The notes beneath the pieces were generated by a model. The model was not told where the DNA came from, ran no database searches, and worked only from the letters and a program-made list of their open reading frames with translations. A stretch of 64,000 bases of DNA from Spirochaetia bacterium (GTDB lineage Bacteria; Spirochaetota; Spirochaetia; CAKZLE01): NCBI GenBank assembly GCA_963677595.1, contig OY782041.1, forward strand, positions 1,984,001 through 2,048,000, in the 5' to 3' direction. Positions 20,876-62,087 of this stretch are shown here, one piece after another (within the stretch, counting starts at the first letter, position 1; each line of letters starts with the position of its first letter). The position numbers were made by a program, and so were the translations under genes.

Positions 20876-21658
20876 TTATCCTTTAGCCCATTCCCAGGGG
20901 GTGGAGGCGTTCTGGACGCAGTACTTGCCCCCGGTGATTTCGATATCGGTGCCGGTAAAGTACCCGGCTTCGTCTGAAGAAAGGTAGACGATGAGCTTGG
21001 AGAGGTCCTCCGGCTTTCCGAGCCTGTGGAGTGCGACATTCTCGACGTACTTCTCGCCGTTCTCCTTGATGGAATCCTCACTCATCTCGGTCTGGATCAT
21101 CCCGGGGATATACCCGAAGACCCGAATCCCGTAGGGGGCGAAGTTAGCGGCAAGGCTCTTCGTGAGGTTCGATACCCCTGCCTTCGTCATGGCATAGAGG
21201 ACCCCCTGGCTGTGGGGAATCAGGGCAGCATAAGAGGAGGCATTGATGATGACCCCGCCCCTTCCGAGGGTGATCATATGCCGAGCAGCTATTCTTGAGC
21301 CCTCATATACAGCCCTGAGGTTAGTGTTTACGGTAGTATCCCAGTCCTCATCGGTGAAATCGAGTACCTTCTGGTTTATTGCCACTCCGGCATTGTTGAT
21401 CCAGACATCAAGTGCCCCATCCCTTTCCACGATCTTATTTGCCATGTCCTGCATGCCAGCCCTGTCGGTGACATCAAGTGTCCAGCAGGTGATATCGTAT
21501 CCCTGGTCCTGACACCAAGCACTGAACTCGGCATTCCGCTTCTCGTTCCTCCCGCAGACATGGACATGTGCCCCGGCTTTAGCAAATTCGATCGCTATGG
21601 CTTTCCCGATACCGGCTGTTCCGCCGGTGATGACTGCGACCCTGTATGTGTTCTTCAT
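20876..21658 (-). CDS. SDR family NAD(P)-dependent oxidoreductase
   Basis: TGGTAGIG, NNAG, YAMTK, PGMIQT. Confidence 0.93.
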   Translation of the reverse strand: MKNTYRVAVITGGTAGIGKAIAIEFAKAGAHVHVCGRNEKRNAEFSAWCQDQGYDITCWTLDVTDRAGMQDMANKIVERDGALDVWINNAGVAINQKVLDFTDEDWDTTVNTNLRAVYEGSRIAARHMITLGRGGVIINASSYAALIPHSQGVLYAMTKAGVSNLTKSLAANFAPYGIRVFGYIPGMIQTEMSEDSIKENGEKYVENVALHRLGKPEDLSKLIVYLSSDEAGYFTGTDIEITGGKYCVQNASTPWEWAKG

Positions 21659-21755
21659 GGTATTGGTTCCTTTTTCTGTGAGGTTCTATGATCTTGGTGA
21701 AACTCGTAACTTTGTCTAATACCCAGCGTTTCCGAACGTGAGATAGCGTGCCGTA

Positions 21756-22430
21756 TCATTCATCGTATTTTACTAAAGACAGGATACTGTCATTATAGAC
21801 ATTCATGAGATGTTCATCGATATATTTCACGAGGTCAGGGATGTTGTTTTCCTTGATCGCCTCTAAGATCCTATTGTGAGCATCCTGAGCTCGAAGGATA
21901 TTCTCGTCAGTAAACGTATTGGTCCTGAAGAGCTCACTCTGTGCCCTGATGTTCTGGTACATTACCATGAGCCGTGAGTTCTCGGCAAGTTTGAAGATGG
22001 TAAGATGGAAGCGACGGTCATAATGGAGGAACGACTCAAAATCACTCTTTACCTTCTGCTGCCTGGCCTGAGTCTTTTCCAACTGGTCAACCAGTTTGTC
22101 ATGGTTCTTGCTGATAGCAAGTTTGCAGGCGGTCTCTTCCATCATGATACGCAGCTCATATACAGCCTTGACATCTTCCAGGGTAGGTTTATAGACATAG
22201 CTCCCCTTGTTCGGGATGATTGTGACCAGGTGCTCGAGGGACAACCGCTCGATCGCCTTGATCACCGGGGACCTGCTCACGCCAAAGTAGTTCGCCAGGT
22301 CAATGATCTCAAGCCGTTCACCCCACTTGAATTTACCTGTCAGGATGTCTTCCTTGATCTTGTGATAGGCCTGCTGGCTTAATGAGTCGACTTTTAGTGT
22401 TCCAGAAGCTCTCTCTTCCCCTTTTGCCAT
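21756..22430 (-). CDS. GntR family regulator (FCD domain)
   Basis: GVSRSPVIKA wHTH, YELRIMME, DRRFH. Confidence 0.92.
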   Translation of the reverse strand: MAKGEERASGTLKVDSLSQQAYHKIKEDILTGKFKWGERLEIIDLANYFGVSRSPVIKAIERLSLEHLVTIIPNKGSYVYKPTLEDVKAVYELRIMMEETACKLAISKNHDKLVDQLEKTQARQQKVKSDFESFLHYDRRFHLTIFKLAENSRLMVMYQNIRAQSELFRTNTFTDENILRAQDAHNRILEAIKENNIPDLVKYIDEHLMNVYNDSILSLVKYDE

Positions 22431-22549
22431 ACATTACTCGCTTTAAATTTTACAGCAATTATACTATAAACGGCTTATTGAATGCAACATATAGTAACAA
22501 AAGCTGCATGTGTCCCCATTATTGCTCCATTAATCATAGAACTTGTTAA

Positions 22550-22564
22550 ATGCAACATGTTCAT
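22550..22564. promoter_or_regulatory. Putative GntR operator (variant of ATCCAACATGTTGGAT) upstream of gntR
   Basis: ATGCAACATGTTCAT; a half-site ATGCAACAT also occurs at ~22482. Confidence 0.6.
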
Positions 22565-22603
22565 ACCAGATTGGTGTGGTTGTACACATACTCTGGTATG
22601 AAC
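22559..22603 (-). terminator. Inverted repeat downstream of DapA-family gene
   Basis: GTTCATACCAGA ... TCTGGTATGAAC 12-bp arms plus an inner stem. Confidence 0.6.
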
Positions 22604-22621
22604 TTTGCCTGAGCTCTTTCG

Positions 22622-23605
22622 TTATGAGATGATCCCGCATGCTGTGAGAGCAACTTTCAGCTCAGCTACCTCCTCGGTTGTCAGGTTCTCAAGCGGTTCC
22701 CTGACAATACCTCCAGGCTGTCCGGCAAGTTCCATCGATTTCTTCAGGACTGATTGGTATACGGACGTAGCCCTGCCGCCGACTTCCTGCTCGATAGTGG
22801 TGGGAATCCTTCGCTTAGCAACACATCGACCGATGAACTTGTGGTATGGGATCAGTTTGTCCAGCCAGGCCTTCATGGTATCATAGTCTTTCTGCATAGC
22901 GGCATCGTACATCCCGTATGCGATGTCGGGAGCGAAGCAGATAAGCTCTGTCACGAATGACCTGCATCCCAGCAGGGCTTCATAGATGAAATAGATATTC
23001 CCGATGCCGCAGCAGACGGTGAAATCCTCAGGATCTATCTCTTCCATCATCCAATAGGCTTTTTCCATGGTCGTGGCATTCTCTTTCGATGCGATGATGT
23101 TCGGTACCTTCGATAAACGCTGCATGATGTCCACGGGTATCTGCATCTTGGAGGTGCTCGGGTTGTTGTACACCATCACTCCGATATCGAGCTTCTCCGC
23201 GATCTTTGAAAAATGACGGTACAGCCCTTCATCAGCGGTCATCAGGTAATAGGGGTTCGTGATCATCGCACAGTCAATACCCAGGTCCTGGGCTTGCAGG
23301 CTCATATCAATAGAGAGTTTCGTCGCTGCCCGTCCTGTCCCGGCTATGATCGGAACCTTCCCGTTGGCAGTCTCCACGACGGTCTTGATCATTGCGAGGG
23401 ATTCCTCATCGGTCATGGCATAGAATTCTGAAGTACTCCCGGCTATCATGATACAGCCGTCCTTTCCCTCCATCTGTTCCACCGCAAATTGGGCTGTGGC
23501 TCTCATTGCCCCAAGGTCGAGAGATTCATCATCATTGAAGTGGGTTGGAAGCAGCGCAAGCGGCCCCTTGAGTTTCGCCTGCATCTCTTTTGGTGAAAGT
23601 CCCAT
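22622..23605 (-). CDS. DapA/NanA-family Schiff-base lyase (aldolase/dehydratase) #1
   Basis: GSTSEF, NPYY, YNNP, catalytic Lys in ASKEN; paralog of 55845-56825. Confidence 0.9.
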   Translation of the reverse strand: MGLSPKEMQAKLKGPLALLPTHFNDDESLDLGAMRATAQFAVEQMEGKDGCIMIAGSTSEFYAMTDEESLAMIKTVVETANGKVPIIAGTGRAATKLSIDMSLQAQDLGIDCAMITNPYYLMTADEGLYRHFSKIAEKLDIGVMVYNNPSTSKMQIPVDIMQRLSKVPNIIASKENATTMEKAYWMMEEIDPEDFTVCCGIGNIYFIYEALLGCRSFVTELICFAPDIAYGMYDAAMQKDYDTMKAWLDKLIPYHKFIGRCVAKRRIPTTIEQEVGGRATSVYQSVLKKSMELAGQPGGIVREPLENLTTEEVAELKVALTACGIIS

Positions 23606-23679
23606 TCGTTCTGACTCCTTTTAAGAAAAAAGTTCTATCTCCATACATGATGAAGATAGAACTGTATCGTGTAAGAAAA

Positions 23680-24600
23680 TTAGACCAGCTTGATATCAGG
23701 ATAGACCTGCACAAGGCTGTCAAACAGGATCTGCTTGTCATCAGCAGTAAGGTCCACTGCAGGAAGCCGTGGGAGACCGACATCCATTCCCTGCATCTTC
23801 AGGGCATTCTTGATCATCGGCAGCCAGTGCGGATCATCGTTTGCCCGTCGGATATACATGAAGTAGTATGCGATCGGGAGCATCTTCTTCCAGATCTCGA
23901 TTCCCTTCTTCAGGTCCTTCTCTTTGTCGATCGCATCGAACAGCTCGACACAGAGGTCAGGTACCACGTTCGGAAGCCCTGACAGCCATCCGTCAGCACC
24001 GACGCAGAACGCCTCAAGCGGTGAATAGTCATGGCCGTAGAGTACGCTGACAGCGTCTTTGTTGATGTACTTCATGTAATCACATCGCATGGAATCACCA
24101 TGGGCTGCCTTAACAGAATTCACGGCTCCCTCGTCAGCGAGGATCTTGACCTGAGCCGGAGTAAGTTCATATCCAGCGAACCAGGGGTTGTTATATACCA
24201 TGAGAGGTCCGCCCCAGGCCTTGGAAACAGCCCGCAGGTGGTTCATGGCAGCTTCTACATTCGGTTTGTAGTAGAAGGGGAGCAGGCACATTACGCCGTC
24301 AGCCCCGACATCCCGATACTTCTTCACGGTCTCGCATGCGATCTTGGTCGAATACCCGATATAGCCTGCATAGACAGGTACTCGTCCAGCTGCGGCTTCG
24401 ACAGATGTCTTCACGACCTGGACTCGTTCTTCTTCGGTCAATGCAGCTCCCTCACCAGTTGAACCAACGGGAGAGATACCATGTACCCCTTTCCCGATCA
24501 ACCATTCGATGAATTGTTTCTGCCCTTCAAGATCAAGGTTGCCCTGATCGTCGAATACGGTAAGCATTGCGGGGATGATCCCTCTTGGTCCTTTTTCCAT
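23680..24600 (-). CDS. DapA/NanA-family Schiff-base lyase #2
   Basis: GSTGE, PFYY, YNNP, SVKAAHG. Confidence 0.9.
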   Translation of the reverse strand: MEKGPRGIIPAMLTVFDDQGNLDLEGQKQFIEWLIGKGVHGISPVGSTGEGAALTEEERVQVVKTSVEAAAGRVPVYAGYIGYSTKIACETVKKYRDVGADGVMCLLPFYYKPNVEAAMNHLRAVSKAWGGPLMVYNNPWFAGYELTPAQVKILADEGAVNSVKAAHGDSMRCDYMKYINKDAVSVLYGHDYSPLEAFCVGADGWLSGLPNVVPDLCVELFDAIDKEKDLKKGIEIWKKMLPIAYYFMYIRRANDDPHWLPMIKNALKMQGMDVGLPRLPAVDLTADDKQILFDSLVQVYPDIKLV

Positions 24601-24640
24601 ATCCTATCTCCTTAAATATAATGTATACCATGCAACTTGC

Positions 24641-24656
24641 ATCCAACATGTTGGAT
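24641..24656. promoter_or_regulatory. Putative GntR operator, perfect palindrome
   Basis: ATCCAACATGTTGGAT, 40 bp upstream of the leftward dapA-like operon. Confidence 0.8.
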
Positions 24657-24810
24657 ATATCCTAGCACCAAGATTTTGCTTTGTCAATAAAGATTATGCA
24701 TCAACTTTCTTGTGCGATTGCTATATAGTTTACAAATATAGTAACTGATTAGACTTACTGCAGGCTTCCAGGCGGGAAATATTGACATATTGCATAAAGG
24801 AAAGTTTCTA

Positions 24811-24857
24811 TTGACTTATGATATTTTTCATTTATACTTATATCTAACATGTTGGAT
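24811..24857 (+). promoter_or_regulatory. sigma70 promoter plus second GntR operator for the rightward operon
   Basis: TTGACT (24811) -16 bp- TATACT (24833); ATCTAACATGTTGGAT at 24842-24857. Confidence 0.75.
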
Positions 24858-24880
24858 GAAGGATTGGAGGGCCAATACTG

Positions 24881-25966
24881 ATGAGAAACGGAGCACCGCT
24901 CGTCTTAGGAGCAGGTAGGTATGTTCAAGGCCCAGGGTTGCTGGCAACCATTGCGAAGGAAGTATCCTACCTGGGTACGAAAGCAGTGATCCTTGCCGAG
25001 GAACTCCCCTGGGATACATTCAAGGACACCATTACCTCAAGTCTGGAGGATGCTTCAATCCCTTATATAGTGTTCCCGTTTTCCGGGTACTGTTCCGATT
25101 CCGTGACTTCAAAACTTGCAGAGGCAGTGAAGCAGGAAGCTGCTGACCTGGTGATAGGGGTTGGCGGCGGCAAGGCGATGGATGCCGCAAAATGGGGTGC
25201 CTATCAAGCTGGTGTGCAGGTGCTGAACGTGCCTACGACCGTCACGACCTGTGCTGCCTCGGTAACCCTTTGTGTCTTATATGATGACGATGGGGCCATG
25301 AATCGAGTGGAATTCACGGACCGGGCTGTCGGTTGCGTTCTCATTGACACCGACCTGATCGTGAACCAGTGTCCTGCCAGGCATTTTGCCGCAGGGATCG
25401 CCGATGCCCTGGCAAAAGAGCCGGAGATGTACTTCAGTGAGAGGTTTGCCCAGAATTGGGAGGACTCAGTACTGCCGACAGCCGGGGCCCTTGTCAGCCA
25501 GTTCACGGCAAGTGAGTATTTCTCGTATGGATTGCAGGCGCTGGAAGACCTGAAAGCCGGGAAGGTGACCGATGCCGTAGATGACGTCGTTGCTTTGAAT
25601 GTTGTCATGACCGGGCTGGTCTCGAGTTTTGCAAGCGGTGGAAAGCAGCTGGCACTGGCTCACTCCCTGTATGACTGCACCACCATCCTGTTCAAGCCGC
25701 AGCGTGCAAAATACCTGCACGGTGAGATCGTCTCCTGTGGAATACCAATCCAGCTTGCAGTCAACGGCTATGATGAGCAGAGGATCAAGTCGGTGATCGA
25801 ATTCCTGAAGAAGTTAGGTACACCGACGAAGCTCAGCGATATCGAGATAAAACCAACAGAGGAGAATATTGAGACTATCCTCAATTACATGTTCACAACC
25901 ATGGATATAAGGGATACAGCGATGCAGGATCGTATTCGTGAGGGCATTAGGCTGATCTCTCATTGA
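24881..25966 (+). CDS. Glycerol dehydrogenase-like (family III metal-dependent polyol dehydrogenase)
   Basis: RYVQG, GVGGGKAMD, PTT, IADALAK, LAHS, LHGE. Confidence 0.88.
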   Translation: MRNGAPLVLGAGRYVQGPGLLATIAKEVSYLGTKAVILAEELPWDTFKDTITSSLEDASIPYIVFPFSGYCSDSVTSKLAEAVKQEAADLVIGVGGGKAMDAAKWGAYQAGVQVLNVPTTVTTCAASVTLCVLYDDDGAMNRVEFTDRAVGCVLIDTDLIVNQCPARHFAAGIADALAKEPEMYFSERFAQNWEDSVLPTAGALVSQFTASEYFSYGLQALEDLKAGKVTDAVDDVVALNVVMTGLVSSFASGGKQLALAHSLYDCTTILFKPQRAKYLHGEIVSCGIPIQLAVNGYDEQRIKSVIEFLKKLGTPTKLSDIEIKPTEENIETILNYMFTTMDIRDTAMQDRIREGIRLISH

Positions 25967-26020: not shown

Positions 26021-27070
26021 ATGGCAAAAAAACTGTTTTTGTGTGTGTTGATCGTGCTCTGCAGTATCTCACTGGTTACTGCCCAGGGACAAGCAGAGAC
26101 CGCATCGAGTGGGTCGGGGATCCAGCCGATGACGATCACCTTCTCACACCCGGATGTCGTTGATCCTAATCAGCATTCTCAGGGTGGGGCGCTGTTCTTC
26201 AAGGACTATATCGAAGAGAAGTCAGGTGGGGCTATCAAGGTCAACATCCAGGGCGGCGGCGCTCTCGGTGGTTCTGCAGAACTGCAGGAGATGGTCATGA
26301 ACAACACGATCCCGAACCATGTCAGTATCGGGCATACTGAGGGTACGATAGCTCCCGTCTTCCCTGATATCCAGGTGCTTACTATTCCATACCTGTTTGA
26401 TGACGTAGATATGGCGCTCGGCATCATGGATGGCCCGTTCGGCGACAAGCTGTTCGACATGCTGGCTGACAAGACCGGTATCAGGGTCCTTGGGGTCTAT
26501 GATAACGGGTTCCGATCCCTCATGAACAATGTCCGGCCGATCCACACCCCGGCAGATGTGAAAGGCCTGAAGATCCGAGTCATGTCGATCAAGTCGCATC
26601 AGGCGATTATCCAGAATCTTGGCGGTATCCCCATCGTTGTTCCATGGTCAGAACTCTATACAGCACTCCAGACCGGCGTTGTTGACGGCTGCGAGAACTC
26701 ACCACCAACCTTGGTGCTTGGCTCACTCCATGAAGTGAATAAGTACCTGACCCTTGATGGTCATGTATATAGCCAGGTTCATGTAATCGTGAATGATGAT
26801 TGGCTGAATGGTCTTCCTGCAGCAAACAAGAAACTGGTCGAGGACGCCTGTGCGGCAACCGGTATAAAGATCAGAGAACTGATGCTTGAAGAGCAGAAGA
26901 TTGCTTTAGGCATCATCGGGGAGCAGTGTGAGATCTATGACCCGACTCCTGCTGAGAAGGCGATGTTCAGGGAAGCAATCCAGGAACCGGTCAAAGGCCT
27001 TATCGCTGAACTCCTTGATACTCCATCGTTGATCGATGAGATCCTGAAATATGCTGAGGAAGCAAGATAA
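26021..27070 (+). CDS. dctP: TRAP transporter substrate-binding protein DctP (system 1)
   Basis: NGFRS, GLKIRVM (carboxylate-binding Arg), ELYTALQTGVVDG. Confidence 0.93.
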   Translation: MAKKLFLCVLIVLCSISLVTAQGQAETASSGSGIQPMTITFSHPDVVDPNQHSQGGALFFKDYIEEKSGGAIKVNIQGGGALGGSAELQEMVMNNTIPNHVSIGHTEGTIAPVFPDIQVLTIPYLFDDVDMALGIMDGPFGDKLFDMLADKTGIRVLGVYDNGFRSLMNNVRPIHTPADVKGLKIRVMSIKSHQAIIQNLGGIPIVVPWSELYTALQTGVVDGCENSPPTLVLGSLHEVNKYLTLDGHVYSQVHVIVNDDWLNGLPAANKKLVEDACAATGIKIRELMLEEQKIALGIIGEQCEIYDPTPAEKAMFREAIQEPVKGLIAELLDTPSLIDEILKYAEEAR

Positions 27071-27157
27071 TAACATCTAATGTGAAGAGGGCCGGGTTCC
27101 CGATGTGTATACAGCGGCAGCCCGGCTTCCTGATCGAATTCAAACGAGGAGCCTTCT

Positions 27158-27739
27158 ATGGGACCAGTGAAACTAAAACATGGCACGATGCCCGATGCAC
27201 ATAAGGAAACAGCAGATGCTTTCAGGCCCAATAGCAAGGTCTCTGCATTCTTCAAATGGGTCGTGCTTATCTGTGAGAAAATTTGCATGACTATCATCAT
27301 CACGCTCCTGGTCCTGGTCTCTGCTGGTATTTTCCTTCGTATGGTGAATATCGGGATACCCTGGGTCGAGGAGGTCTGTCTCTACCTGATGGTCTGGCTC
27401 GGTATGATTGGTGCTGTAATTCTGGTGGTCGAGGAAGGCCATGTGTGTATCACATTCCTGTTTGAGAAGTTCCCGCTCAGAGTACAGTTGACACTCAAGC
27501 TGGTGTTCGAGGCCCTTATGGTCTATGCCCTGGTCATCTATATCAAGTATGGCTGGGTCTATATGGTCAATGGGAAGAAGACGGCATCGACTTCCCTGCC
27601 TATCACACGGATGATCCCAAATGCAGCTATCCCTGTTGGGGCGGTGTTGATGTCGCTCTGTCTGATTCTCCTGATGGTTCGTGATGTCAGGAGGTTCATA
27701 TGGAGTTATACGAACAGAACCTGGGAACGGGAGGAATAG
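27158..27739 (+). CDS. dctQ: TRAP small permease DctQ (system 1)
   Basis: WVEEV, GHV, 4 TM; lies between dctP and dctM. Confidence 0.88.
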   Translation: MGPVKLKHGTMPDAHKETADAFRPNSKVSAFFKWVVLICEKICMTIIITLLVLVSAGIFLRMVNIGIPWVEEVCLYLMVWLGMIGAVILVVEEGHVCITFLFEKFPLRVQLTLKLVFEALMVYALVIYIKYGWVYMVNGKKTASTSLPITRMIPNAAIPVGAVLMSLCLILLMVRDVRRFIWSYTNRTWEREE

Positions 27740-27740
27740 T

Positions 27741-29039
27741 ATGTCACTGATTCTGTCACTTGCGATGTTCATCCTGCTGCTGGGACTGCTGCTCTTCGGC
27801 AGCCCGGTCGCCTATACCATCGGGATCATCGGGACGCTATGGATGCATCTCGGCCAGCTGCCTATCCCGATCATCCCCCAGCGCCTGTTCAACGGCATGA
27901 GCCAGTTCACCCTGATGGCAGTACCGTTCTTCATCCTTGCCGGGAATCTGATGAACTCATCAGGCATAGCCCGGGAACTGGTTTCCTTTGTCAACTTCTT
28001 TCTGGGAAGGTTCAGGGGAGGGCTTGCCCAGGCAAATATCGGGACCAGCCTGATCTTTGCAGGAATCACCGGGGCAGCGATCTCTGATGTCGCGGCGCTC
28101 GGTTCGATCTTCATCCCTGAGATGGAGCGGAACGGGTATTCCCGTTCGTTCTCTTCGGCAGTCACGGCGGCCTCGTCCATTGTGGGGCCGATCATACCGC
28201 CGAGTATCATCATCGTACTCTACAGCTCGGTTACGGGGGTCTCGGTAGGTACGATGTTCATGGCGGCGATCCTGCCGGGTGTAGCGATCGGGCTTACCCA
28301 GATGATCCTTACCTATTTCATCGCACGTAAACGGAACTACCCGAGATACGAGATGGAGAAGATGAGTTTCAAGGCATTCATGGTGGTACTCTCGAGGGCG
28401 ATACTTGCGTTGATCATGCCGGTGATCATCATCGGAGGGGTCGTGTCAGGGATGTTCACCCCGACAGAATCTGCCGCGATCGCAGTACTGTATGCCCTGG
28501 TAGTGGGGAAGTTCGTCTTCAAGAAGATCACGATGAAAGTCTTCCTCGATGACGTCAAAGATACCGTCAGGACGACCGGCATGCTCCTGTTCATCATCGC
28601 TGTCGCCAGTGTCCTCTCCTGGATCCTCAGTTACATCAACCTTCCCGTCATCTTGGCGAACGGCTTGATTGGGATCCTCGGTAATCGATGGCTCGTGTTC
28701 TTTGCGGTAGTGCTGATGCTCATCTTTGTTGGTACCTGGATGGAATCAGGGGCTGCGCTGATCATGCTGGCGCCAGTGTTCTCCCAGGTGCTTGGGGAGC
28801 TCGGGTTCAACCCGATCCATTACGGGGTGGTGATCATCATCACGCTGAACCTCGGCCTGATCACCCCGCCGCTGGGAGTCTGCCTCTTCGCGGTCGCCGG
28901 TGTGGCTCATGAGCGGTTCGAGAAGATCGCGAGGGATATCGTCCCCTACCTGGTAGTGATCATACTGACGATCATCCTGATCGTCATCCTTCCAGACATC
29001 ACATTGTCCCTGCCGAAGCTGTTGGGGATGATCGGATAG
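27741..29039 (+). CDS. dctM: TRAP large permease DctM (system 1)
   Basis: LMAVPFFILAG, GGLA, IIPPS, TPTES, ITPP; start ATG 27741 after GAGG. Confidence 0.95.
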   Translation: MSLILSLAMFILLLGLLLFGSPVAYTIGIIGTLWMHLGQLPIPIIPQRLFNGMSQFTLMAVPFFILAGNLMNSSGIARELVSFVNFFLGRFRGGLAQANIGTSLIFAGITGAAISDVAALGSIFIPEMERNGYSRSFSSAVTAASSIVGPIIPPSIIIVLYSSVTGVSVGTMFMAAILPGVAIGLTQMILTYFIARKRNYPRYEMEKMSFKAFMVVLSRAILALIMPVIIIGGVVSGMFTPTESAAIAVLYALVVGKFVFKKITMKVFLDDVKDTVRTTGMLLFIIAVASVLSWILSYINLPVILANGLIGILGNRWLVFFAVVLMLIFVGTWMESGAALIMLAPVFSQVLGELGFNPIHYGVVIIITLNLGLITPPLGVCLFAVAGVAHERFEKIARDIVPYLVVIILTIILIVILPDITLSLPKLLGMIG

Positions 29040-30306: not shown

Positions 30307-30326
30307 TAGAGCGAATCAAGAAGATC

Positions 30327-53578: not shown

Positions 53579-53607
53579 CATTAGAACAAGAGGCGTAAGA
53601 GAATACG

Positions 53608-54767: not shown

Positions 54768-54861
54768 TTGACAGATGGGAATATGTGCTTTAGTCTGTTA
54801 TCAGACAATTGATACAGCGCAGCTAGCTGGGCATGTCCTGGTTCTGCGTCTGATACCAGAC
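54768..54861 (+). promoter_or_regulatory. sigma70 promoter with two FadR-type operators
   Basis: TTGACA (54768) -17 bp- TAGTCT (54791); GTCTGTTATCAGAC (54793) and GTCTGATACCAGAC (54848). Confidence 0.8.
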
Positions 54862-55835
54862 AAATCTGTCGTGTAGCGGCAGGTAACCCCCAATAACATC
54901 AATCATAAGGAGATATGAGATGTTCAATAAAGACACATACGGCAAGATCTTAGTCCCGGTAGTGACCCCCTTCAAAGAGAACGGGGACGTGGACTATGAA
55001 GGGATGGTGCAGATCGGCGAGAAGCTGCTTGAGAAGGGCTGGGCCGATTCATTCATCCTGACAGGGACCACCGGCGAGTTCCACACGATGACGAGCGAAG
55101 AGCGGATCAAGATCTTCCAGACGATGTATGACGCATTCAAGGGACGGATCCCTATCATCGCAGGGACCGGAGCCCCCTCGACACGAGAGACGATCAAGCT
55201 GACGAAGGCAGCCGAGGAGATCGGGTACGAGACGGTGATGGTGGTAGCCCCCTACTACACAAGGCCGTCACAGGCAGAGATCAAGAACCACTACCAGCTC
55301 GTAGCGCGCGCAGTGAAGGTCGATATCCTGATCTACAACATCCCGATCTTCACAGGGGTGAACACCTCACCTGAGATCGTGGCCGAGCTGGCGAAAGAGC
55401 CGAACATCGTGGGTCTGAAGGAAGAGGCTGAGCTGAATGCGAAGCAGATGACCGAGTTTATCAACGTGACACCGGATGATTTCATCATCTACAACGGAGA
55501 TGACACGATGGTGCTGGAGTCCTTCGTACAGGGATACGAGCGGATCGGCGGCGTGATCAGCGGCGGGGCGCACCTGGTAGGTGACCAGATCCGTGAGATG
55601 ATCGACTGCCTGCATGAGGGGAAGGTGCAGGAAGCATCAGTGATCCAGCGACGGCTGCTGCCGTTGTACCGGATCATGGGACAGGGCGGGAGGACGAACC
55701 CGGTCTGTCTGATCAAGGATGCGATGAGGATGGTAGGCTATCCTGCAGGCTACCCGAGACTGCCGATGCTCCCCGGGACTGAGGAAGAGGTGAAGAACGT
55801 ACGTGAGCTGATGATCAAGGTCGGCGCACTGAAGG
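54848..55835 (+). repeat. 988-bp direct repeat, copy 2
   Basis: Near-identical to 42926-43913. Confidence 0.93.
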
Positions 55836-55840
55836 AGTAG
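54920..55840 (+). CDS. DapA/NanA-family lyase #6 (duplicate of #4)
   Basis: Protein identical to 42998-43918 except the last residue (E vs A). Confidence 0.92.
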   Translation: MFNKDTYGKILVPVVTPFKENGDVDYEGMVQIGEKLLEKGWADSFILTGTTGEFHTMTSEERIKIFQTMYDAFKGRIPIIAGTGAPSTRETIKLTKAAEEIGYETVMVVAPYYTRPSQAEIKNHYQLVARAVKVDILIYNIPIFTGVNTSPEIVAELAKEPNIVGLKEEAELNAKQMTEFINVTPDDFIIYNGDDTMVLESFVQGYERIGGVISGGAHLVGDQIREMIDCLHEGKVQEASVIQRRLLPLYRIMGQGGRTNPVCLIKDAMRMVGYPAGYPRLPMLPGTEEEVKNVRELMIKVGALKE

Positions 55841-55844: not shown

Positions 55845-56825
55845 ATGGGACTGAAACCACAGGAGATGATCAAGAAGCTCAAAGGGCCTCTCACGATATT
55901 CCCGACCCATTTCAAGGATAACGGGGATCTCGACCTCGATGCGATGCGTGTCTCTGCGGAGTATGCGAAGGAAGTCTATAAAGGGCATGACGGCTGTATG
56001 ATGATAGCCGGCAGTACCAGTGAGTTCTATGCGATGACCGATGAGGAGTCGTTGGCTATGATCAAGACGGTCGCTGACGTGCTGGGAGGATCCGTCCCCC
56101 TGATCGTTGGTACCGGCCGAGCCGCTACACGATTGTCGATAGACATGAGCGTGAAAGCCCAGGACCTGGGCATCGACATGGCGATGATCACCAACCCCTA
56201 CTACATGCATGTGACCGAGGATGGGCTCTACCGCCACTTCTCGCAGATAGCTGAGAAGCTCGATATCGGGGTGATGATCTATGACAACCCGACGACGAGC
56301 AAGATCGCTATCCCCCCGCACCTGATGCAGCGGCTCTCGAAGGTGCCGAACATCATCGGGGTGAAGGAGAATACCACCAGTATCGAGAACTACTACTGGA
56401 TGACGAAGGTCGTGGATCCTGCTGATATGGTCATCACCTGCGGGATCGGTCACCTGACCTATATGTTCGAGGCTCCGCTGGGAGTCCCGGCATTCGTCTC
56501 GGAACTCGTCTGCTTCGCACCGAAGATCGCGTTCGCGATCTACGATGCGGCAGTAGCGAAAGATTACGCGGAAATGAGGCGACAGCTTGACCTGCTGGTA
56601 CCGTACCATCGGTTCGTAGCAGGCTGTGTCGCGAGAAGGAGTATCCCCACTATCCTCGGACAGGAATGGGGAGGAAAGGCCACCTCCGTCTACCAGTCGA
56701 TCCTCAAGAAGGCGATGGAACTGGTAGGACTTCCTGGTGGCATCGTAAGAGAACCGTTAGAGAATATTACCGATGCGGAAGTTGCAGAGCTAAAGAGTGT
56801 CCTGCACTCCATCGGGATAATTTAA
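55845..56825 (+). CDS. DapA/NanA-family lyase #7 (paralog of #1)
   Basis: GSTSEFYAMTDEES, NPYY, YDNP, GVKEN. Confidence 0.9.
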   Translation: MGLKPQEMIKKLKGPLTIFPTHFKDNGDLDLDAMRVSAEYAKEVYKGHDGCMMIAGSTSEFYAMTDEESLAMIKTVADVLGGSVPLIVGTGRAATRLSIDMSVKAQDLGIDMAMITNPYYMHVTEDGLYRHFSQIAEKLDIGVMIYDNPTTSKIAIPPHLMQRLSKVPNIIGVKENTTSIENYYWMTKVVDPADMVITCGIGHLTYMFEAPLGVPAFVSELVCFAPKIAFAIYDAAVAKDYAEMRRQLDLLVPYHRFVAGCVARRSIPTILGQEWGGKATSVYQSILKKAMELVGLPGGIVREPLENITDAEVAELKSVLHSIGII

Positions 56826-56837: not shown

Positions 56838-57809
56838 ATGATGAAAAGACTTTTCGTTCTGTTGATGGTGCTTGCTATGGCAGCTCCAATGGTGTTCGCT
56901 CAGGGTGCTGCTGAGGCAGCTGATGAGTTTCCTACGGAACCGATCAAGCTGATCGTTCCCTGGTCAGCCGGCGGTGGTACTGATGCTATTGCCCGTGCAT
57001 TGGCAAAATCAGGTGAGAAGCACCTTGGTGTACCTGTCGTTGTAGAGAACAAGCCTGGTGGAACCGGTGCTGTAGGCCTTGGAGAGACGGTGAAGGCAAA
57101 ACCAGATGGGTATACCCTTGCTGTACTGCCTGTTGAGCTGAGCTTCCTGAAGGATTCCGGGATCTACCCGTTCGACTTCACGAACTTCACACGGATCATG
57201 AACCTCAACACAGACCCCTCTGCCCTGACTGTGAAGGCAGATGCTCCCTGGAACACCCTGGCTGAGTTCGTCGCTTATGCTGAAGCTAATCCTGGTGCGA
57301 TCAAGATCGGTCACTCAGGAACCGGTATGCTGTGGCACCTCGCAGCTGCATCCCTCGCGCTTGAGACTGGGACTGAGTACACCTATGTTCCGTTCAACGG
57401 AGCTGCAGACGCTATCGCAAGTGTCCTTGGTGACAACATCGATGCAGTCACAGTAAGTGGTGCTGAGGTATCAGCCCAGGTACGTGCCGGCGAGATGAAG
57501 ATCCTTGCAGTATTCGGTGACAGCCGAATGGAAATCTTCCCGGATGTCAAGACTGCTAAAGAGCAGGGATTTGATGTCGTCGTCAACACCTTCCGGGGAC
57601 TCGGTGGTCCTGCAGGCATCCCTGAAGATCGAGTGAAGATCCTCCATGAAGGGTTCAAGGCGATGATGGAAGAACCTGAGTTCATCAAGGTCATCAGCAA
57701 CATGGGTCTCGGTATCGATTACCGAAGCACTGATGATTACTATGCACTGACTGATGATACTGCTGCCAGGTTGGCTCCAGTACTTGAAAGTCTCTTGGAA
57801 ATCCAGTAA
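56838..57809 (+). CDS. tctC: Tripartite tricarboxylate transporter binding protein (Bug/TctC)
   Basis: IVPWSAGGGTD, VENKPGGTG, PDGYTL, VPFNG. Confidence 0.94.
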   Translation: MMKRLFVLLMVLAMAAPMVFAQGAAEAADEFPTEPIKLIVPWSAGGGTDAIARALAKSGEKHLGVPVVVENKPGGTGAVGLGETVKAKPDGYTLAVLPVELSFLKDSGIYPFDFTNFTRIMNLNTDPSALTVKADAPWNTLAEFVAYAEANPGAIKIGHSGTGMLWHLAAASLALETGTEYTYVPFNGAADAIASVLGDNIDAVTVSGAEVSAQVRAGEMKILAVFGDSRMEIFPDVKTAKEQGFDVVVNTFRGLGGPAGIPEDRVKILHEGFKAMMEEPEFIKVISNMGLGIDYRSTDDYYALTDDTAARLAPVLESLLEIQ

Positions 57810-57822
57810 GCGTGTTCAGATA

Positions 57823-57857
57823 GGGTTTTGCTCCGGCTGTATGCCGGGGCAAAGTCC
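57823..57857 (+). terminator. Stem-loop after tctC
   Basis: GGGTTTTGCTCCGGC / GCCGGGGCAAAGTCC. Confidence 0.55.
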
Positions 57858-57875
57858 TATAATAAGGATTGATAC

Positions 57876-58382
57876 ATGAAGTATACACGAAAAGTTGCCT
57901 TGGAGATCGGAATCAATATCCTGTTCATCATGATCGCTGTCGGGATGTTCGCTGTCTCAGGCAATTATAAATTTGTCCGGGGGACCCTCATCGGGGCGAG
58001 GACCTTCCCGATCCTGATCGGGGGGATCATGTCTGTATTTGCCCTCGTCAATATCACGGTCGCATTGAGACGGGAAGCTCCCCAGGACGAGGAGCTGGAT
58101 GTTGAGGAAGATATCGACGAGTCTTCAACAGGCAGGTTCAATGAGTGGCTGCGGAAGTACCGAGTGGGTGCAGCCATCGGCCTGATGGTGATCTATTATC
58201 TGCTGCTGCTGTCTGTCGGCTTCATCGTCGCGACCCTGATCTTCCTGCCAGCAATGCTGTATATCGTTGAGTACAGGAAATGGACGCATGTTGCCCTCGT
58301 GACGGTCATCGGTGTCGCATTTCTCTATGTCGCATTCAAGATCCTGCTTGGAGTACCGCTCCCACAGTCACCGCTATTCTAA
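57876..58382 (+). CDS. tctB: TctB small membrane subunit
   Basis: 4 TM, G.R.FP, GFIVAT, C-terminal LGVPLP. Confidence 0.88.
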   Translation: MKYTRKVALEIGINILFIMIAVGMFAVSGNYKFVRGTLIGARTFPILIGGIMSVFALVNITVALRREAPQDEELDVEEDIDESSTGRFNEWLRKYRVGAAIGLMVIYYLLLLSVGFIVATLIFLPAMLYIVEYRKWTHVALVTVIGVAFLYVAFKILLGVPLPQSPLF

Positions 58383-58396
58383 GGAGAATCAGCACA

Positions 58397-59881
58397 ATGT
58401 TAAATTACCTGTTTGATGGATTCGGTTTTCTATTCACGACGATGGCAGCTCCCGCACTCATGGCTGGAGTGGTACTTGGGATCATCCTCGGAGTCCTCCC
58501 TGGTCTCACTGCAACGATGGGAATTGCGCTTCTCATCCCATTGACCTACTACGTTTCGCCAAGTATTGGATTATCGATGCTCATCGGTATCTTCGCCGGG
58601 GGGATCTATGGTGGGTCAGTTTCAGCCATCCTGCTGAAGACGCCGGGGACTCCTGCCGCAGGGGCGACCCTCCTTGACGGATATCCCCTGGCACAGAGCG
58701 GCCATGCCGGCAAGGCGATCGCTATCGCCACGATCTCAAGTGCGATCGGGGGACTGATCGGGGCCCTCATCCTCTCGTTCCTTGCACCGCAGATCGCGAA
58801 GATCGCTGTGAAGTTCGGGCCACCGGAATATGTACTTCTCGGTGTCTACGGCTTGACGATGATCTCCTTCGTTTCGGGAAAATCCCTGATCCGGGGCCTG
58901 TTTGCCGGATGTATCGGCCTGCTGATCTCGACGTTCGGGATCGACCCGATCACCAGTGTCCCCCGATTCACCTTCGGGACGCTCAACCTCCTTACCGGGT
59001 TCGAGCTGCTTCCCATCCTCATCGGGATCTTCGCGATGTCCCAGGCCATAGAGGGTGTGCGTGACTCAAGGAAGATAGCACCCCCGCAAGTCAAGCTGAC
59101 CAGCGTCGGGATCTCGATCAAGGAATTCCTGCGCATTCTGCCGCATATCGTGAAGAGTGCGTTCATCGGGACCTTCGTAGGGGCAGTCCCCGGGACCGGT
59201 ACTGATATAGCAGCATTCCTCTCCTATGGTGAGGCTAAGCGGTCCTCGAAACACCCCGAAGAGTTCGGAACCGGTGCCCTTGAAGGGGTGGCGGCACCGG
59301 AAGCCGGGAATAACGCCTGTGTGAACGGGGCAATGATTCCTATGTTTACGCTCGGAATCCCAGGGGAGGCGGCGACTGCAGTCATCCTCGGGGGACTCAT
59401 GGTCCTCGGTCTCCAGCCTGGTCCGCTCCTGTTCACCGATTCACCTGATGTGATCTATACGGTGTTCGCCAGTACGATCACATCCAACCTGTTCATGATC
59501 GTTTTGGGTATCCTCGGAGCACGGTTCTTTGCCAAGGTCCTGTCGCTTCCGAAGAGTGTCATCGTCTCATTCATCTTTGTCTTCTCGGTTCTGGGAGCCT
59601 ATTCGATGAGGAACAGCATGTTCGACATCATCGTCATGATGAGTGCCGGTCTGCTGGGGTATATCTTCTCTGTTATCGATTACCCCGTACCCCCAGTGCT
59701 GCTGGGAGTGATCCTCGGGCCGCTGGTAGAGTCGAATCTTGGAAGGACGCTGCTGGTATCAGACGGGAACCTGACGATCTTCTTCAAGCGCCCGATCTCG
59801 ATATTCTTCATCCTGATCATCGTGGGCACTATCAGTTCGAATGTGTACAAACACTTTAAAGCAAAGCGGACTTCCGCCTGA
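58397..59881 (+). CDS. tctA: TctA large membrane subunit
   Basis: GVLPGL, YGGS, PGTP, DGYP, APEAGNNA, TLGIPG, GLQPGP; start ATG 58397 after AGGAG. Confidence 0.94.
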   Translation: MLNYLFDGFGFLFTTMAAPALMAGVVLGIILGVLPGLTATMGIALLIPLTYYVSPSIGLSMLIGIFAGGIYGGSVSAILLKTPGTPAAGATLLDGYPLAQSGHAGKAIAIATISSAIGGLIGALILSFLAPQIAKIAVKFGPPEYVLLGVYGLTMISFVSGKSLIRGLFAGCIGLLISTFGIDPITSVPRFTFGTLNLLTGFELLPILIGIFAMSQAIEGVRDSRKIAPPQVKLTSVGISIKEFLRILPHIVKSAFIGTFVGAVPGTGTDIAAFLSYGEAKRSSKHPEEFGTGALEGVAAPEAGNNACVNGAMIPMFTLGIPGEAATAVILGGLMVLGLQPGPLLFTDSPDVIYTVFASTITSNLFMIVLGILGARFFAKVLSLPKSVIVSFIFVFSVLGAYSMRNSMFDIIVMMSAGLLGYIFSVIDYPVPPVLLGVILGPLVESNLGRTLLVSDGNLTIFFKRPISIFFILIIVGTISSNVYKHFKAKRTSA

Positions 59882-59911: not shown

Positions 59912-60739
59912 ATGAAAGATACGTTATTCAGTGTGGAAGGCAAAGTAGCCATCGTTACCGGGGCCCTCGGACAGCTTGGGGCACAGTTCGCGAACGAACT
60001 GCTGAGCCGGGGCGCCAAGGTCGCTGTCTTTGGGAGGACCCTGCGACAGGGGTCGATAGAAAGCCTCTACACAAAAGAGGATCGGGATGCAGGGAATGTG
60101 ACCTTCCATCAGGTCGATATCGCCGATAAAGCGAGCATTACCAAAGGTGTCTCAGAAGTGGTCTCCAATTTTGGAGTCCCCCACATCCTGGTGAACAATG
60201 CCGGGATCGATACACAGCCGAGTGCACCGCCCGAGGTGTCCGGACCCTTCGAAAAGTTCCCGGAGGAAGTATTCCGTGAGGTCGTTGATGTGAACCTTAC
60301 CGGGACATTCCTGATGATCCAGGCTGTCGGAGCCCTCATGGCTGAAGAAGGGCGAGGCTCTATCATCAACATCGGGTCGATCTACGGCATGCTCTCCCCG
60401 GTACAGGATATCTACGCGTACAAGGCAGAGAAGACCGGGGTCCCCTTCATCAAGCCAGTCGCATACTCCGCCGCGAAATCGGGTCTCTATAACCTAACAC
60501 GATACTGCGCTACCTACTGGGGAAAGAAGGGCGTTCGTGTGAACATACTCTCTCCAAGCGGGGTATTCCGTGATACGCAGGATGCTGAGTTCCAGAAGAA
60601 CTACTGTAACCGTATCCCTATCGGCAGGATGGCTAGGTCTGAGGAGTATAACGGAGCGATCATCTTCCTCGCTTCCGATGCATCGATCTATATGACCGGG
60701 GCGAACCTGGTGATGGACGGTGGTTGGACCGCATGGTAG
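59912..60739 (+). CDS. SDR family oxidoreductase
   Basis: TGALGQLG, NNAG, GSIYG..SP...IY, YSAAK, MTGANL.MDGGWTAW. Confidence 0.92.
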   Translation: MKDTLFSVEGKVAIVTGALGQLGAQFANELLSRGAKVAVFGRTLRQGSIESLYTKEDRDAGNVTFHQVDIADKASITKGVSEVVSNFGVPHILVNNAGIDTQPSAPPEVSGPFEKFPEEVFREVVDVNLTGTFLMIQAVGALMAEEGRGSIINIGSIYGMLSPVQDIYAYKAEKTGVPFIKPVAYSAAKSGLYNLTRYCATYWGKKGVRVNILSPSGVFRDTQDAEFQKNYCNRIPIGRMARSEEYNGAIIFLASDASIYMTGANLVMDGGWTAW

Positions 60740-61623
60740 CTTCAGGAACGAATCCCCTGAGTGGGATCTATTCAGCACTCATCACCCCGATGGATGCTGG
60801 GGAGCAGGTCAATATCCCGGTCCTGCGCGAGATCGTGGAATACCAGATCCAGAAGGGGGTGGAGGGGTTCTACTGCTGCGGCTCATCAGGGGAAGCACTG
60901 CTGCTTTCCCATGAGGAACGCGAGTTGATCGTCAAGACCGTCGCTGAACAGGTGGCAGGAAGGGTCCCCGTCATTGCCCATGTGGGCACGCTCAGGACCC
61001 GGGATACCGTGATGCTTGCCCGGCGTGCCATAGATGACGGGGCATCTGCGGTCTCGATGATCCCTCCTTACTACTACAAATTCTCACAGACTGAGATCCT
61101 CGGTTACTATGAGGATGTGGTCGCCGAAGCGAAGGTCCCGGTCATCATCTATAATATCCCGCAATTCACGGGGATCTCATTCACCAAGGAGAATGCCGGA
61201 TCTCTGCTGGAAAGGGAAGAGGTGATAGGCGTCAAGCACACATCCTCCGACCTGTACGGGCTGGAGCGGATGAAGAGTGCATTCCCTGACAAGCTCTATT
61301 TCAATGGGTTTGATGAGACCTTCCTCTCTGCGCTCTCAGCAGGTGCGGATTCTGCGATAGGGACTACGGTCAACCTGTTTGCCCCGCGATTCACGAAGAT
61401 CCGTGACCTGTTCAAGGCAGGGAACATAGTGGAAGCCCAGGTCGAGCAGACCAAGGCGAATACCTGTGTGGAACTGCTGGTAAAACATGGGATCTTCAAC
61501 GGGGTGAAATATGCACTTACCCTGCAGGGATTCGAGAGCGGGTCCTGCAGGGCTCCCTTCAAACCCCTTACAGCTGAAGCGAAGGAAGAGATCGCACAGC
61601 TGATGAACGAGTACAGCCTGTAA
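60733..61623 (+). CDS. N-acetylneuraminate lyase-like DapA/NanA family member #8
   Basis: GIYSALITP, GSSGE, IAHVG, PPYYY, YNIP, KHTS, NGFDE, AIGTT.N; the most NanA-like of the eight. Confidence 0.85.
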   Translation: MVASGTNPLSGIYSALITPMDAGEQVNIPVLREIVEYQIQKGVEGFYCCGSSGEALLLSHEERELIVKTVAEQVAGRVPVIAHVGTLRTRDTVMLARRAIDDGASAVSMIPPYYYKFSQTEILGYYEDVVAEAKVPVIIYNIPQFTGISFTKENAGSLLEREEVIGVKHTSSDLYGLERMKSAFPDKLYFNGFDETFLSALSAGADSAIGTTVNLFAPRFTKIRDLFKAGNIVEAQVEQTKANTCVELLVKHGIFNGVKYALTLQGFESGSCRAPFKPLTAEAKEEIAQLMNEYSL

Positions 61624-61636
61624 CCACATGTAACAG

Positions 61637-61662
61637 CCTGATACGGGTCGTCCCGTATCAGG
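61637..61662 (+). terminator. Terminator of the tct/nanA-like operon
   Basis: CCTGATACGGG-tcgt-CCCGTATCAGG followed by CCCGTTCTTT. Confidence 0.7.
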
Positions 61663-61812
61663 CCCGTTCTTTCATACCACGGTTCCCAAGTCCTTTCTTG
61701 GCTTGGAAGATGCTATCGAACAGAGTAGAGACAACAAAAACCCCCTTTAGAACTGCGTTATTCGCTGACAAGGGGTAAAACCACTATTTGTCAAGAAGTA
61801 TATGCATAAATA

Positions 61813-61841
61813 TTGACTAATTGTCTGATATCAGATATTTT
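61813..61841 (+). promoter_or_regulatory. Promoter with FadR-type operator upstream of small ORF
   Basis: TTGACT (61813) -17 bp- TATTTT (61836); TGTCTGATATCAGATA (61822-61837) covers the spacer. Confidence 0.65.
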
Positions 61842-61876
61842 ATCGATAAATATTTATATTTTCGAGGTGTTGGCAG

Positions 61877-62044
61877 ATGGCACAGAAAGGCAAGAAGAAA
61901 CAGCGTATCGGAAGTGCATTAGCAAGTTTCGGTAAATCCAGCAGAAACTGGCTGGCAAGTTCTTTCAGGGACGCTTTGAAGGACGAGGCTAAGAACGACC
62001 AAGATAGGGATGTGGTTGGTTCGTATCGGTATTACGGACTATAG
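61877..62044 (+). CDS. Small hypothetical protein, 55 aa
   Basis: MAQKGKKKQRIGSALASFGKSSRNWLASSFRDALKDEAKNDQDRDVVGSYRYYGL; RBS GAGGTG 7 nt upstream, own promoter and terminator; absent from the ORF track. Confidence 0.65.
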   Translation: MAQKGKKKQRIGSALASFGKSSRNWLASSFRDALKDEAKNDQDRDVVGSYRYYGL

Positions 62045-62061
62045 AGCAAGGAAGAGCATTG

Positions 62062-62087
62062 CCCACGGGATTGACCGTGGGTTTTTT
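62062..62087 (+). terminator. Intrinsic terminator after small ORF
   Basis: CCCACGG-gattga-CCGTGGG-TTTTTT. Confidence 0.8.

Follow-up and report, generated by a model that had tools for sequence, protein, structure and literature searches.

Three overlapping cassettes of DapA-fold lyases and LarA-family proteins in a spirochaete genome, probably for cleavage of 2-keto-3-deoxy sugar acids

What does a bacterium use eight lyases of the DapA/NanA family for, when their genes stand within about 41 kb of each other together with three LarA-family genes and four carboxylate transporters, and do the parts form one pathway? This question is raised by a region of the genome of a Spirochaetia bacterium (GenBank assembly GCA_963677595.1) that occupies positions 20,876 to 62,087 of the window analysed here, a stretch of 64,000 nucleotides (contig OY782041.1, positions 1,984,001 to 2,048,000 of the forward strand). 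An earlier note on this DNA had read the region as a single kinase-independent toolkit in which LarA proteins epimerise sugar acids ahead of oxidation or dehydration and cleavage. Our analysis, which rests on sequence comparison, indicates instead that the region probably consists of three overlapping catabolic cassettes, separately acquired, and not of one integrated pathway. The lyases appear likely to act on 2-keto-3-deoxy sugar acids. On this basis the region would be an undescribed variant of non-phosphorylative keto-deoxy acid catabolism that works like the known keto-deoxy acid aldolase pathways; as the note had held, no pathway of this composition was found in the literature searched.

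Gene content of the region

The host genome is a single contig of 4,325,376 bases, 95.4% complete and free of Ns. The list of open reading frames (ORFs) and family scans of 42 proteins, 38 of them ORFs of the region, agree with the inventory drawn up earlier, every named gene being an intact ORF where it had been placed. There are eight PF00701 (DHDPS-family) proteins, three with Lar_N matches, three DctPQM (TRAP) transporters and one TctCBA transporter, accompanied by a GldA-like iron-dependent alcohol dehydrogenase (Fe-ADH), two D-2-hydroxyacid dehydrogenases (HDH), an M20 protein, a UxaA-family protein, two short-chain dehydrogenases (SDR), four GntR/FCD regulators, a TetR regulator and EtfBA with a FAD oxidase. 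Kinase families are absent from the 38 ORFs, which bears out the claim that the region holds no sugar-acid kinase. Eight of the 20 PF00701 matches in the genome lie within 40 kb, against a maximum of five in 20,000 random placements, and five relatives from the same family have two to four PF00701 genes each. The genome as a whole has 20 DHDPS-family, eight LarA-family and about 17 DctM homologues.

The word 'island' holds only in the sense of lineage-specific, since the composition is ordinary (GC 0.53-0.54, against 0.546 +/- 0.037 per 20 kb of genome), no tRNA lies in the region and no integrase or transposase is found among its 38 ORFs; the marks of a mobile genomic island (integrase, tRNA site, atypical composition) are thus lacking. 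LarA2-type and Dap2-type genes occur in none of the five family relatives. The features, in window coordinates, are as follows.

20876..21658, minus strand: SDR1, short-chain dehydrogenase (PF00106/PF13561)
21756..22430, minus: GntR_A, module A regulator (family scan; divergent pair with Dap2 orthologues in 4/4 related loci)
22551..24860: three module-A operator-like palindromes of CAACATGTTG type, at 22551, 24642 and 24843 (motif search)
22622..23605, minus: Dap1, uncharacterised DapA-fold subfamily (below KdgD and DapA cut-offs)
23680..24600, minus: Dap2, second DapA-fold subfamily (family scan, homologue loci)
24881..25966, plus: GldA-like Fe-ADH (top models, glycerol dehydrogenase and glycolaldehyde reductase, with scores short of their cut-offs)
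26021..29039, plus: TRAP transporter 1, DctP1-Q1-M1 (family scans)
29167..32189, plus: TRAP transporter 2, DctP2-Q2-M2 (family scans, homologue loci)
32216..33493, plus: LarA1, Lys298-less LarA subfamily with Lys172 (model scores, alignment)
33501..34538, plus: HDH1, D-2-hydroxyacid dehydrogenase family (family scan)
34560..35846, plus: M20 ArgE/DapE-like amidohydrolase (family scans)
35894..36853, plus: HDH2, D-2-hydroxyacid dehydrogenase family (family scan)
36909..37841, plus: Dap3, divergent DapA-fold protein (88% paralogue elsewhere in the genome)
37866..41716, minus: TetR and etfB-etfA-FAD oxidase, LctD/GlcD-like (family scans)
42176..42191: B/C operator palindrome of TGTCTG-N4-CAGACA type, before GntR_B (motif search)
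42204..42908, plus: GntR_B, FadR type (family scan; 85% identity with GntR_C1)
42925..42940: B/C operator before Dap4 (motif search)
42998..43918, plus: Dap4, duplicate of Dap6 (above the TIGR00674 DapA cut-off, without Arg138)
43987..44916, plus: Dap5, DapA-fold subfamily recurring with Dap4-type genes (homologue loci)
44949..48278, plus: TRAP transporter 3, DctP3-Q3-M3 (family scan)
48319..49605, plus: LarA2, subfamily lacking Lys298 (K173 and F298 in the ORF; alignment, predicted fold)
49681..51045, plus: LarA3, LarAH group 22 (NF052515, 521 > 400 bits; PMC7583248 Table S3)
51096..52586, plus: UxaA/GarD-family dehydratase, single chain (family scan)
52675..54303, plus: GntR_C1 and GntR_C2 regulators (family scan)
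54792..54862: two B/C operators before Dap6, at 54792 and 54847 (motif search)
54920..55840, plus: Dap6, duplicate of Dap4 (DNA comparison)
55845..56825, plus: Dap7, Dap1 subfamily, separate clade (identity, tree)
56838..59881, plus: TctC-TctB-TctA transporter (family scan)
59912..60739, plus: SDR2 (family scans)
60724..61623, plus: Dap8, NanA-like (above the NF003164 cut-off, below TIGR00683)
61822..61837: fifth B/C operator, 3' of Dap8 and upstream of a 55-codon ORF at 61877 (motif search)

Module anatomy and origins

Dap4 and Dap6 differ at three positions in 988 nt (99.7% DNA identity) and are one duplicated gene, so that the eight lyase genes amount to only seven different sequences. The duplication is real, since the 988-nt short-read unitig over the repeat has a depth of 95, about twice that of its flanks (48-52), in run X1, possibly that of the source sample. 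Most of modules B and C is also present in a related strain from another study (runs X2 and X3, one sample). Identities between modules are 85% for GntR_B/GntR_C1, 65% for Dap1/Dap7 and 52% for LarA1/LarA2.

The TGTCTG-N4-CAGACA palindrome has five matches in the genome at one mismatch, all of them in modules B and C. With two mismatches allowed it is found in 9 of 16 related loci and nowhere in 1.2 Mb of unrelated DapA loci. The module-A motif is unlike it and weaker, three of its ten genome matches at one mismatch lying in module A, and it also stands between GntR_A and Dap2 orthologues in all four related loci. Because of their common palindrome, modules B and C form one predicted regulon, and module A has another operator. 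The plan with a GntR/FadR regulator that the modules had been said to share is borne out in so far as the same protein families recur together in other phyla, but module C has two GntR genes. Directly after the fifth B/C operator and promoter-like sequence lies the 55-codon ORF (61877-62044, plus strand), for which no convincing homologue was found in the fetched loci or elsewhere in the genome.

The origins of the modules were compared in a set of 84 loci of the Dap1/7 family, four from one scan and 80 the best of 308; in the first contig scan for Dap1/7 relatives, 4 of the 80 loci listed were true family members. Module C is complete by itself in four of the 84 loci (L001, L090, L093 and L094, 48-92% identity per gene) and nearly complete in L089. 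Starred branches place Dap1 and Dap7 in separate clades (40 rows), and likewise LarA1 and LarA2 (38 rows). Taken together, the separate clades and the standalone module C suggest that A and C, with their overlapping gene sets, were acquired separately, although both clade separations come from quick trees. The TetR-etfBA-FAD oxidase unit between A and B is present in single copy in the genome and has its own regulator.

The lyases

The Schiff-base Lys and the equivalent of Tyr133 are present in all eight lyases, both alignment columns being invariant, whereas the equivalent of DapA Arg138 is found in none of them and is present in the top-scoring DHDPS of the genome (position 4306534 of the assembly). 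The pattern supports the Schiff-base lyase chemistry proposed earlier. Each of the eight scores above the PF00701 cut-off. Dap4/6 pass the DapA model TIGR00674 (247 > 206) though without Arg138, and cut-offs of families other than DapA are passed only by Dap8, for one of two NanA models, and by LarA3. The Dap8 scores are 313 against a cut-off of 281 for NF003164 and 266 against 382 for TIGR00683, and its best PDB matches are all NanA (E 2e-60). Dap1 and Dap7 reach 137.7 and 139.2 bits with NF002958, the model of KdgD (5-dehydro-4-deoxyglucarate dehydratase), half its cut-off of 278; it is the best or second-best model for both and spans nearly all of Dap1. The predicted Dap1 structure (pLDDT 90.9) resembles DapA, KdgD and YagE about equally in Foldseek, with KdgD structures at TM 0.83 and 22% identity and DapA structures scoring equally well. 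The likeness to KdgD thus lies in model and fold, and the difference in bits and identity.

Five distinct, co-occurring uncharacterised subfamilies are represented among the lyases, the Dap1/7 family alone forming 65 clusters. PDB sequence searches were tried as a clue to the substrates of Dap1, Dap2, Dap3, Dap4 and Dap5 and set aside, having returned distant DapA-type matches and no ligand hint; ESM Atlas gave generic DHDPS and LarA clusters only. The Dap3-type subfamily has five more members in the host genome (contig C1 at 1781471, 1882308, 3325550, 3331670 and 3395433), two of which are near-identical and lie 6 kb from each other.

DHDPS/NAL-family aldolases are used in non-phosphorylative pathways for 2-keto-3-deoxy sugar acids, such as the L-fucose route in anaerobes and those of the archaeal KDG aldolase and E. 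coli YagE/YjhH. The region has in common with them the DapA fold, the Schiff-base Lys and the lack of Arg138, as well as a carboxylate transporter, dehydratase and dehydrogenase neighbours and an aldehyde reductase. It differs in that no lyase reaches the cut-off of any NCBIfam model for such pathways, and in bringing five uncharacterised lyase subfamilies together with LarA genes and pentose-salvage neighbours. NanA and Kdo aldolase (EC 4.1.2.23, an activity mentioned in the accessible part of PMC12199768) carry out the chemistry that we propose here, retro-aldol cleavage to pyruvate and an aldose, and Dap8 is NanA-like. NanA systems differ in that nanK, nanE and nagA are all missing among the 38 ORFs. 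No paper naming a Kdo-catabolic gene cluster was found in the literature searched.

Neighbours of related lyases

Genome neighbourhoods, which the earlier note had put forward as a check, confirm that the families recur but point to a different product. The 84 Dap1/7 loci include many close relatives and do not give independent partner counts: Dap4/6-type lyases occur in 28, HDH in 16, TRAP transporters in 14, SDR in 11 and TctCBA in 7, with Dap8 (5), GldA (4), Dap5 (4) and LarA (3) rarer. The route to the 2-oxo acid varies with the host, being provided by dehydrogenases (HDH in 16), Ldh_2 (5 loci), FAD oxidases, or an aminotransferase with an amino-acid ABC transporter (5 loci). What recurs beyond these is pentose salvage. 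FucI stands beside Dap1/7-family lyases in four loci, a FucI-type isomerase with a pentulose kinase (TIGR01315, 611 > 409) in two, a ribokinase-like PfkB directly after the lyase in nine and a D-lyxose isomerase in two, these neighbours spanning at least five unrelated locus types. Locus L259 combines Dap4-type, Dap5-type, amino-acid ABC, aminotransferase, ribokinase-like and KpsF-like SIS genes in a single run, and in L261 a ribokinase above cut-off stands beside Dap2 and TRAP genes. The host itself carries FucI (61%) and lyxose isomerase (58%) homologues outside the region.

Pyruvate joined to a pentose gives a C8 3-deoxy-octulosonate such as Kdo. By analogy, the related loci suggest a pentose product, and thus Kdo-type C8 acids over C6 aldonates; for the Dap4/5/1/7 group we tentatively assign a C8 skeleton, at a little under an even chance. 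Since the related loci put kinases downstream of cleavage, 'kinase-independent' holds only for the cleavage step.

Several observations weigh against a C8 assignment. Dap2, Dap3, M20 and UxaA occur in none of the 84 loci. The ribokinase-like (281 < 300) and KpsF-like (132 < 204) genes of L259 fall under their cut-offs, and the host genome has no match to the KpsF-like or aminotransferase genes of that locus. Neighbours of relatives at 40-60% identity need not share the substrate of the host. A pentose is a poorer match for UxaA and the GldA-like reductase than C5-C6 aldonates and short aldehydes would be, and the modules may therefore cover more than one chain length.

Two further patterns were noticed in these loci. 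Genes of HAD-like, 2-hydroxyacid dehydrogenase, Dap7-like and ribokinase-like type follow one another in unvarying order in L137 (7997-12145) and some 12 loci resembling it, surrounded by housekeeping genes (EF-P-like and ClpP-like by inspection), which suggests that they belong to the core functions of that lineage. In 13 of the 84 loci, including L003:8001-9014 and L104:15182-16198, a URO-D-fold protein (PF01208, without an NCBIfam match at 1e-25) is encoded after TRAP genes or before lyases, where spirochaete loci carry a Lys172 LarA, for which it may be a functional stand-in.

The LarA proteins

LarA1 and LarA2 match Pfam Lar_N strongly; LarA3 does so weakly and exceeds the cut-off of the group-22 model NF052515 (521 vs 400 bits). 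The predicted LarA2 structure has the LarA fold (pLDDT 94.2; TM 0.92 to 5HUQ). In an alignment of 38 of the 39 homologues of LarA1/2, one fragment being excluded, D72, R75, H108, H174, K184, H200 and Y294 are invariant; R75, K184 and H200 bind the cofactor, and D72, H108 and H174 are catalytic residues. K298 is found in none of the 38, Phe taking its place in 35, and all 38 have Lys at position 172, which is occupied by Glu in L. plantarum LarA. The reverse holds for 40 other LarAs of the class, all with K298 and none with Lys172. In the accessible portions of PMC7583248 and PMC11851776, K298 is described as catalytic and as binding the substrate carboxylate, and the authors suggest that LarA groups lacking it may perform other hydride chemistry. 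LarA1/2 score 296 and 318 bits at best, under all LarAH cut-offs (500 for these models), and their residues 175/176/358/359 (A,F,W,A) match none of the sets given in the part of PMC11770544 available. By scores and residues they are not assignable to the characterised groups LAR, MAR, LarAH10, GntE or HGR. Compared with the LarA superfamily (LAR, MAR, HGR, GntE, HHR; PMC7583248, PMC11770544, PMC11851776), LarA1/2 share the fold and the seven invariant residues, and differ in lacking K298, in Lys172, in the A,F,W,A letters and in a host without larBCE. From these alignments, LarA1/2 are an uncharacterised LarA subfamily without Lys298 and with a new invariant Lys172; this Lys could take over the part of K298, or the substrate could be one without a carboxylate. 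The C2-epimerase step assigned to the LarAs by the earlier note is accordingly doubtful as it was stated, LarA1/2 having neither Lys298 nor a characterised signature and the genome having no larB, larC or larE.

Lys172 LarAs follow DctP2-type TRAP genes in four loci (L168, L170, L204, L205), two of which (L170 and L205) also have a Dap4-type gene nearby. Group-22 LarAs, a group without assigned function, are reported in SDR, dehydratase and TRAP contexts (PMC7583248 supplement). LarA2 had no match in the plasmids searched. That a nickel-pincer cofactor can work on neutral sugars is seen with NphT, which, in the portion of PMC13524815 available, shuttles hydride on aldoses such as arabinose, ribose and galactose. 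That protein differs in having the fold of an aldo-keto reductase and in occurring beside larBCE, whereas here the fold is that of LarA and larBCE are missing.

Proposed function and the C5-C6 alternative

We propose, as a reading whose chance we put a little under one half, that three stacked cassettes serve the non-phosphorylative splitting of Kdo-type C8 acids and of their reduced or aminated forms, with LarAs working on an outside or alternative cofactor. TRAP and TctC proteins would import a sugar-acid carboxylate. LarA, the dehydrogenases or Etf-LctD would convert its 2-hydroxy or 2-amino forms to the 2-oxo acid, a task that aminotransferases would take on in other hosts. Retro-aldol cleavage or C4 elimination by Dap4/6, Dap5, Dap1/7, Dap2 and Dap8, which would differ in the stereoisomers or chain lengths that they accept, would then give pyruvate and an aldose, most likely a pentose. 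The pentose would be salvaged in trans, for example by the FucI homologue elsewhere in the genome, while the GldA-like enzyme would reduce short aldehydes, and the nickel-pincer cofactor would be scavenged from the community or made by an undescribed route. Two points count against this proposal. The first is that Kdo itself cannot be a substrate of LarA, because ulosonates carry no hydrogen at C2; LarA would require its reduced form or a different compound. The second is that GntR-Dap4-TRAP2-LarA, the smallest set of genes conserved together (L205, L170), does not include a dehydrogenase. We think it improbable, though worth stating, that the Lys172/Phe298 LarA, having lost its carboxylate-binding Lys, acts on the pentose freed by the Dap4 aldolase in place of FucI or KpsF.

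The best-surviving alternative, which we regard as rather unlikely, keeps closer to the earlier note: C5-C6 aldonates or 3-deoxy-aldonates would be epimerised at C2 by LarA, converted by HDH, Etf-LctD and UxaA to KDG/KDP-type acids and split to pyruvate and glyceraldehyde or glycolaldehyde, which the GldA-like enzyme would reduce. UxaA, two 2-hydroxyacid dehydrogenases, Etf-LctD and the GldA-like gene are all in the region, the 2-oxo-acid routes of related loci are interchangeable (HDH 16, Ldh_2 5, aminotransferase with amino-acid ABC 5), group-22 LarAs have the neighbours just described, and Ala at position 175 of LarA1/2 predicts a roomier pocket than that of lactate racemase. Metasaccharinate-type substrates are possible. 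This scheme leaves the repeated pentose-salvage neighbours unexplained, and it meets LarA1/2 proteins that lack both Lys298 and the GntE signature (E,V,A,H) as given in the accessible literature, in a genome with no larB/C/E. A KdgK-like gene elsewhere, recognised by sequence inspection, could take KDG without these lyases, and no paper on such a pathway was found in the literature searched (isosaccharinate, metasaccharinate, Dha, Kdo).

Missing lar cofactor genes

Although it has eight Lar_N matches, the host genome has no match to the LarC (PF01969) or LarB (NF033503) models, only three weak LarE-model matches (23-35 bits vs 150), no tblastn match (E 1e-3) to LarB, LarE or LarC of two relatives and none at E 1 to a profile from 12 LarC sequences. 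The genes that flank the lar cluster of relatives sit 7 kb apart in the assembly with another cassette between them: the slot (C1:3532900-3540220, compared with L187:7350-14332 and L188:5764-12706) holds larB-larE-larC and an ABC transporter in L187 and L188 and, by sequence inspection, LacI, a hydrolase and a sugar ABC cassette in the host.

The pattern extends to the class, within tallies that are samples and include non-independent kin. Lar_N is matched in 280 of 401 genomes and LarC in 108 of 401; where the Lar_N match reaches E 1e-30 or better (195 genomes), LarC is present in 74. With completeness of 90% or more and contamination of 5% or less required, 138 LarA-bearing genomes are left, of which 86 have no larC; of the 40 in 10 or fewer contigs, 20 have none. 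In all four larC-negative near-closed genomes checked, larB and larE also fell under cut-off (positive control G001), and several near-closed genomes, for example G043, G069, G114 and G370, have four to seven LarA genes and no larC. D72, R75, H108, H174, K184, H200 and K298 are kept in 20/20 LarAs from larC-negative genomes. The Lys172 type occurs in six genomes (the host, G380, G435, G475, G032 and G399), five of them without larC, G032 being only 69% complete.

It is improbable, in our estimate, that the region is a heap of partly redundant cassettes in a gene-hoarding genome, with LarAs made inactive by the replacement of larBCE and lyase modules that work without them. The genome-wide numbers of lyases, LarAs and DctM homologues would suit such a heap, as would the long terminal branch of LarA1 (0.71 vs a median of 0.16) and the sugar ABC cassette in the larBCE slot; set against them are the three intact LarA ORFs of the region, which retain the cofactor-binding residues, and the class-wide figures above. 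We lean slightly towards active LarAs supplied with an outside or alternative cofactor. This view has its own difficulties. All five family relatives have larC, so the loss in the host may be recent and its LarAs idle. Another assembly with the same Dap1 protein is 31 kb longer, the larBCE searches having covered the 4,325,376-base assembly, and no importer candidate marks larC-negative LarA loci (20 larC-negative vs 20 larC-positive loci). Gene clusters found 3 to 0 in such loci were considered as larC-negative-specific families and rejected, coming from few closely related loci and looking like shadow ORFs.

The accessible parts of PMC11796402, PMC13524815 and PMC12611868 discuss larBCE without larA, or other topics. 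The situation here is the reverse, and no case of larA without larBCE was found in the literature searched, which did not take in the 2014 lar survey. Going further, one might imagine that about half of LarA-bearing spirochaetes obtain the nickel-pincer cofactor, as with a vitamin, by exchange with other microbes (or produce it by an undescribed route), and that the region is the missing Kdo-type route, with the Lys172/Phe298 LarA working on a neutral pentose; as a whole we consider this picture speculative and unlikely.

Transporters and non-sugar substrates

The carboxylate-site motifs (two conserved Arg motifs, Phe/Trp and Asn) are present in all three DctP proteins, in keeping with the carboxylate binding predicted earlier, and do not by themselves identify the ligand. 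In other genomes TRAP2 is the transporter conserved alongside lyases of Dap4 type and genes of LarA1/2 type, with DctM at 60-82% identity, and the best structure matches of DctP2 include sialic-acid binders. The C-terminus of DctP3 (window 45900-46199) has an Ala/Thr-rich linker and a hydrophobic segment, likely a membrane anchor and unusual for a DctP.

That the substrates are hydroxylated amino acids, other 4-hydroxy-2-oxo acids or C3 sulfonates is very unlikely. In its favour are the amino-acid ABC and aminotransferase genes that flank the lyases in L004, L095, L097, L099, L100, L259 and L262, the M20 amidohydrolase of module A and a TauE-family gene after module C. Against it, most of these loci also carry FucI, ribokinase-like or KpsF-like genes, the DctP2 matches include the sialic-acid binders, and the TauE-family gene is on the other strand, outside the operator-marked operon and no recurring neighbour. 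A sulfonate route (TauE, UxaA, Tct) has low odds.

Implications and neighbouring genes

For five DapA-fold and two LarA subfamilies, all uncharacterised, the region offers concrete candidate proteins, and its shared regulators and transporters make ligand screening direct. The absence of larBCE from a genome with eight LarA genes makes cofactor salvage testable. Kdo-type acids come from lipopolysaccharide, plant pectin and algal walls, and if the C8 assignment is true these would be genes for recycling them in anaerobic communities.

Directly left of the region lies what is probably an independent unit for alpha-glucans (window 11746-20871), made up of a ROK regulator, a sugar ABC transporter and two GH31 genes, of which one encodes an Lmo2446-like N-terminus. 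A PD-(D/E)XK transposase-like gene (PF12784; 6362-7387) lies beside Cys/Met genes, and positions 1241-5593 encode two TAXI-type binding proteins (72% DNA identity) and a fused DctM.

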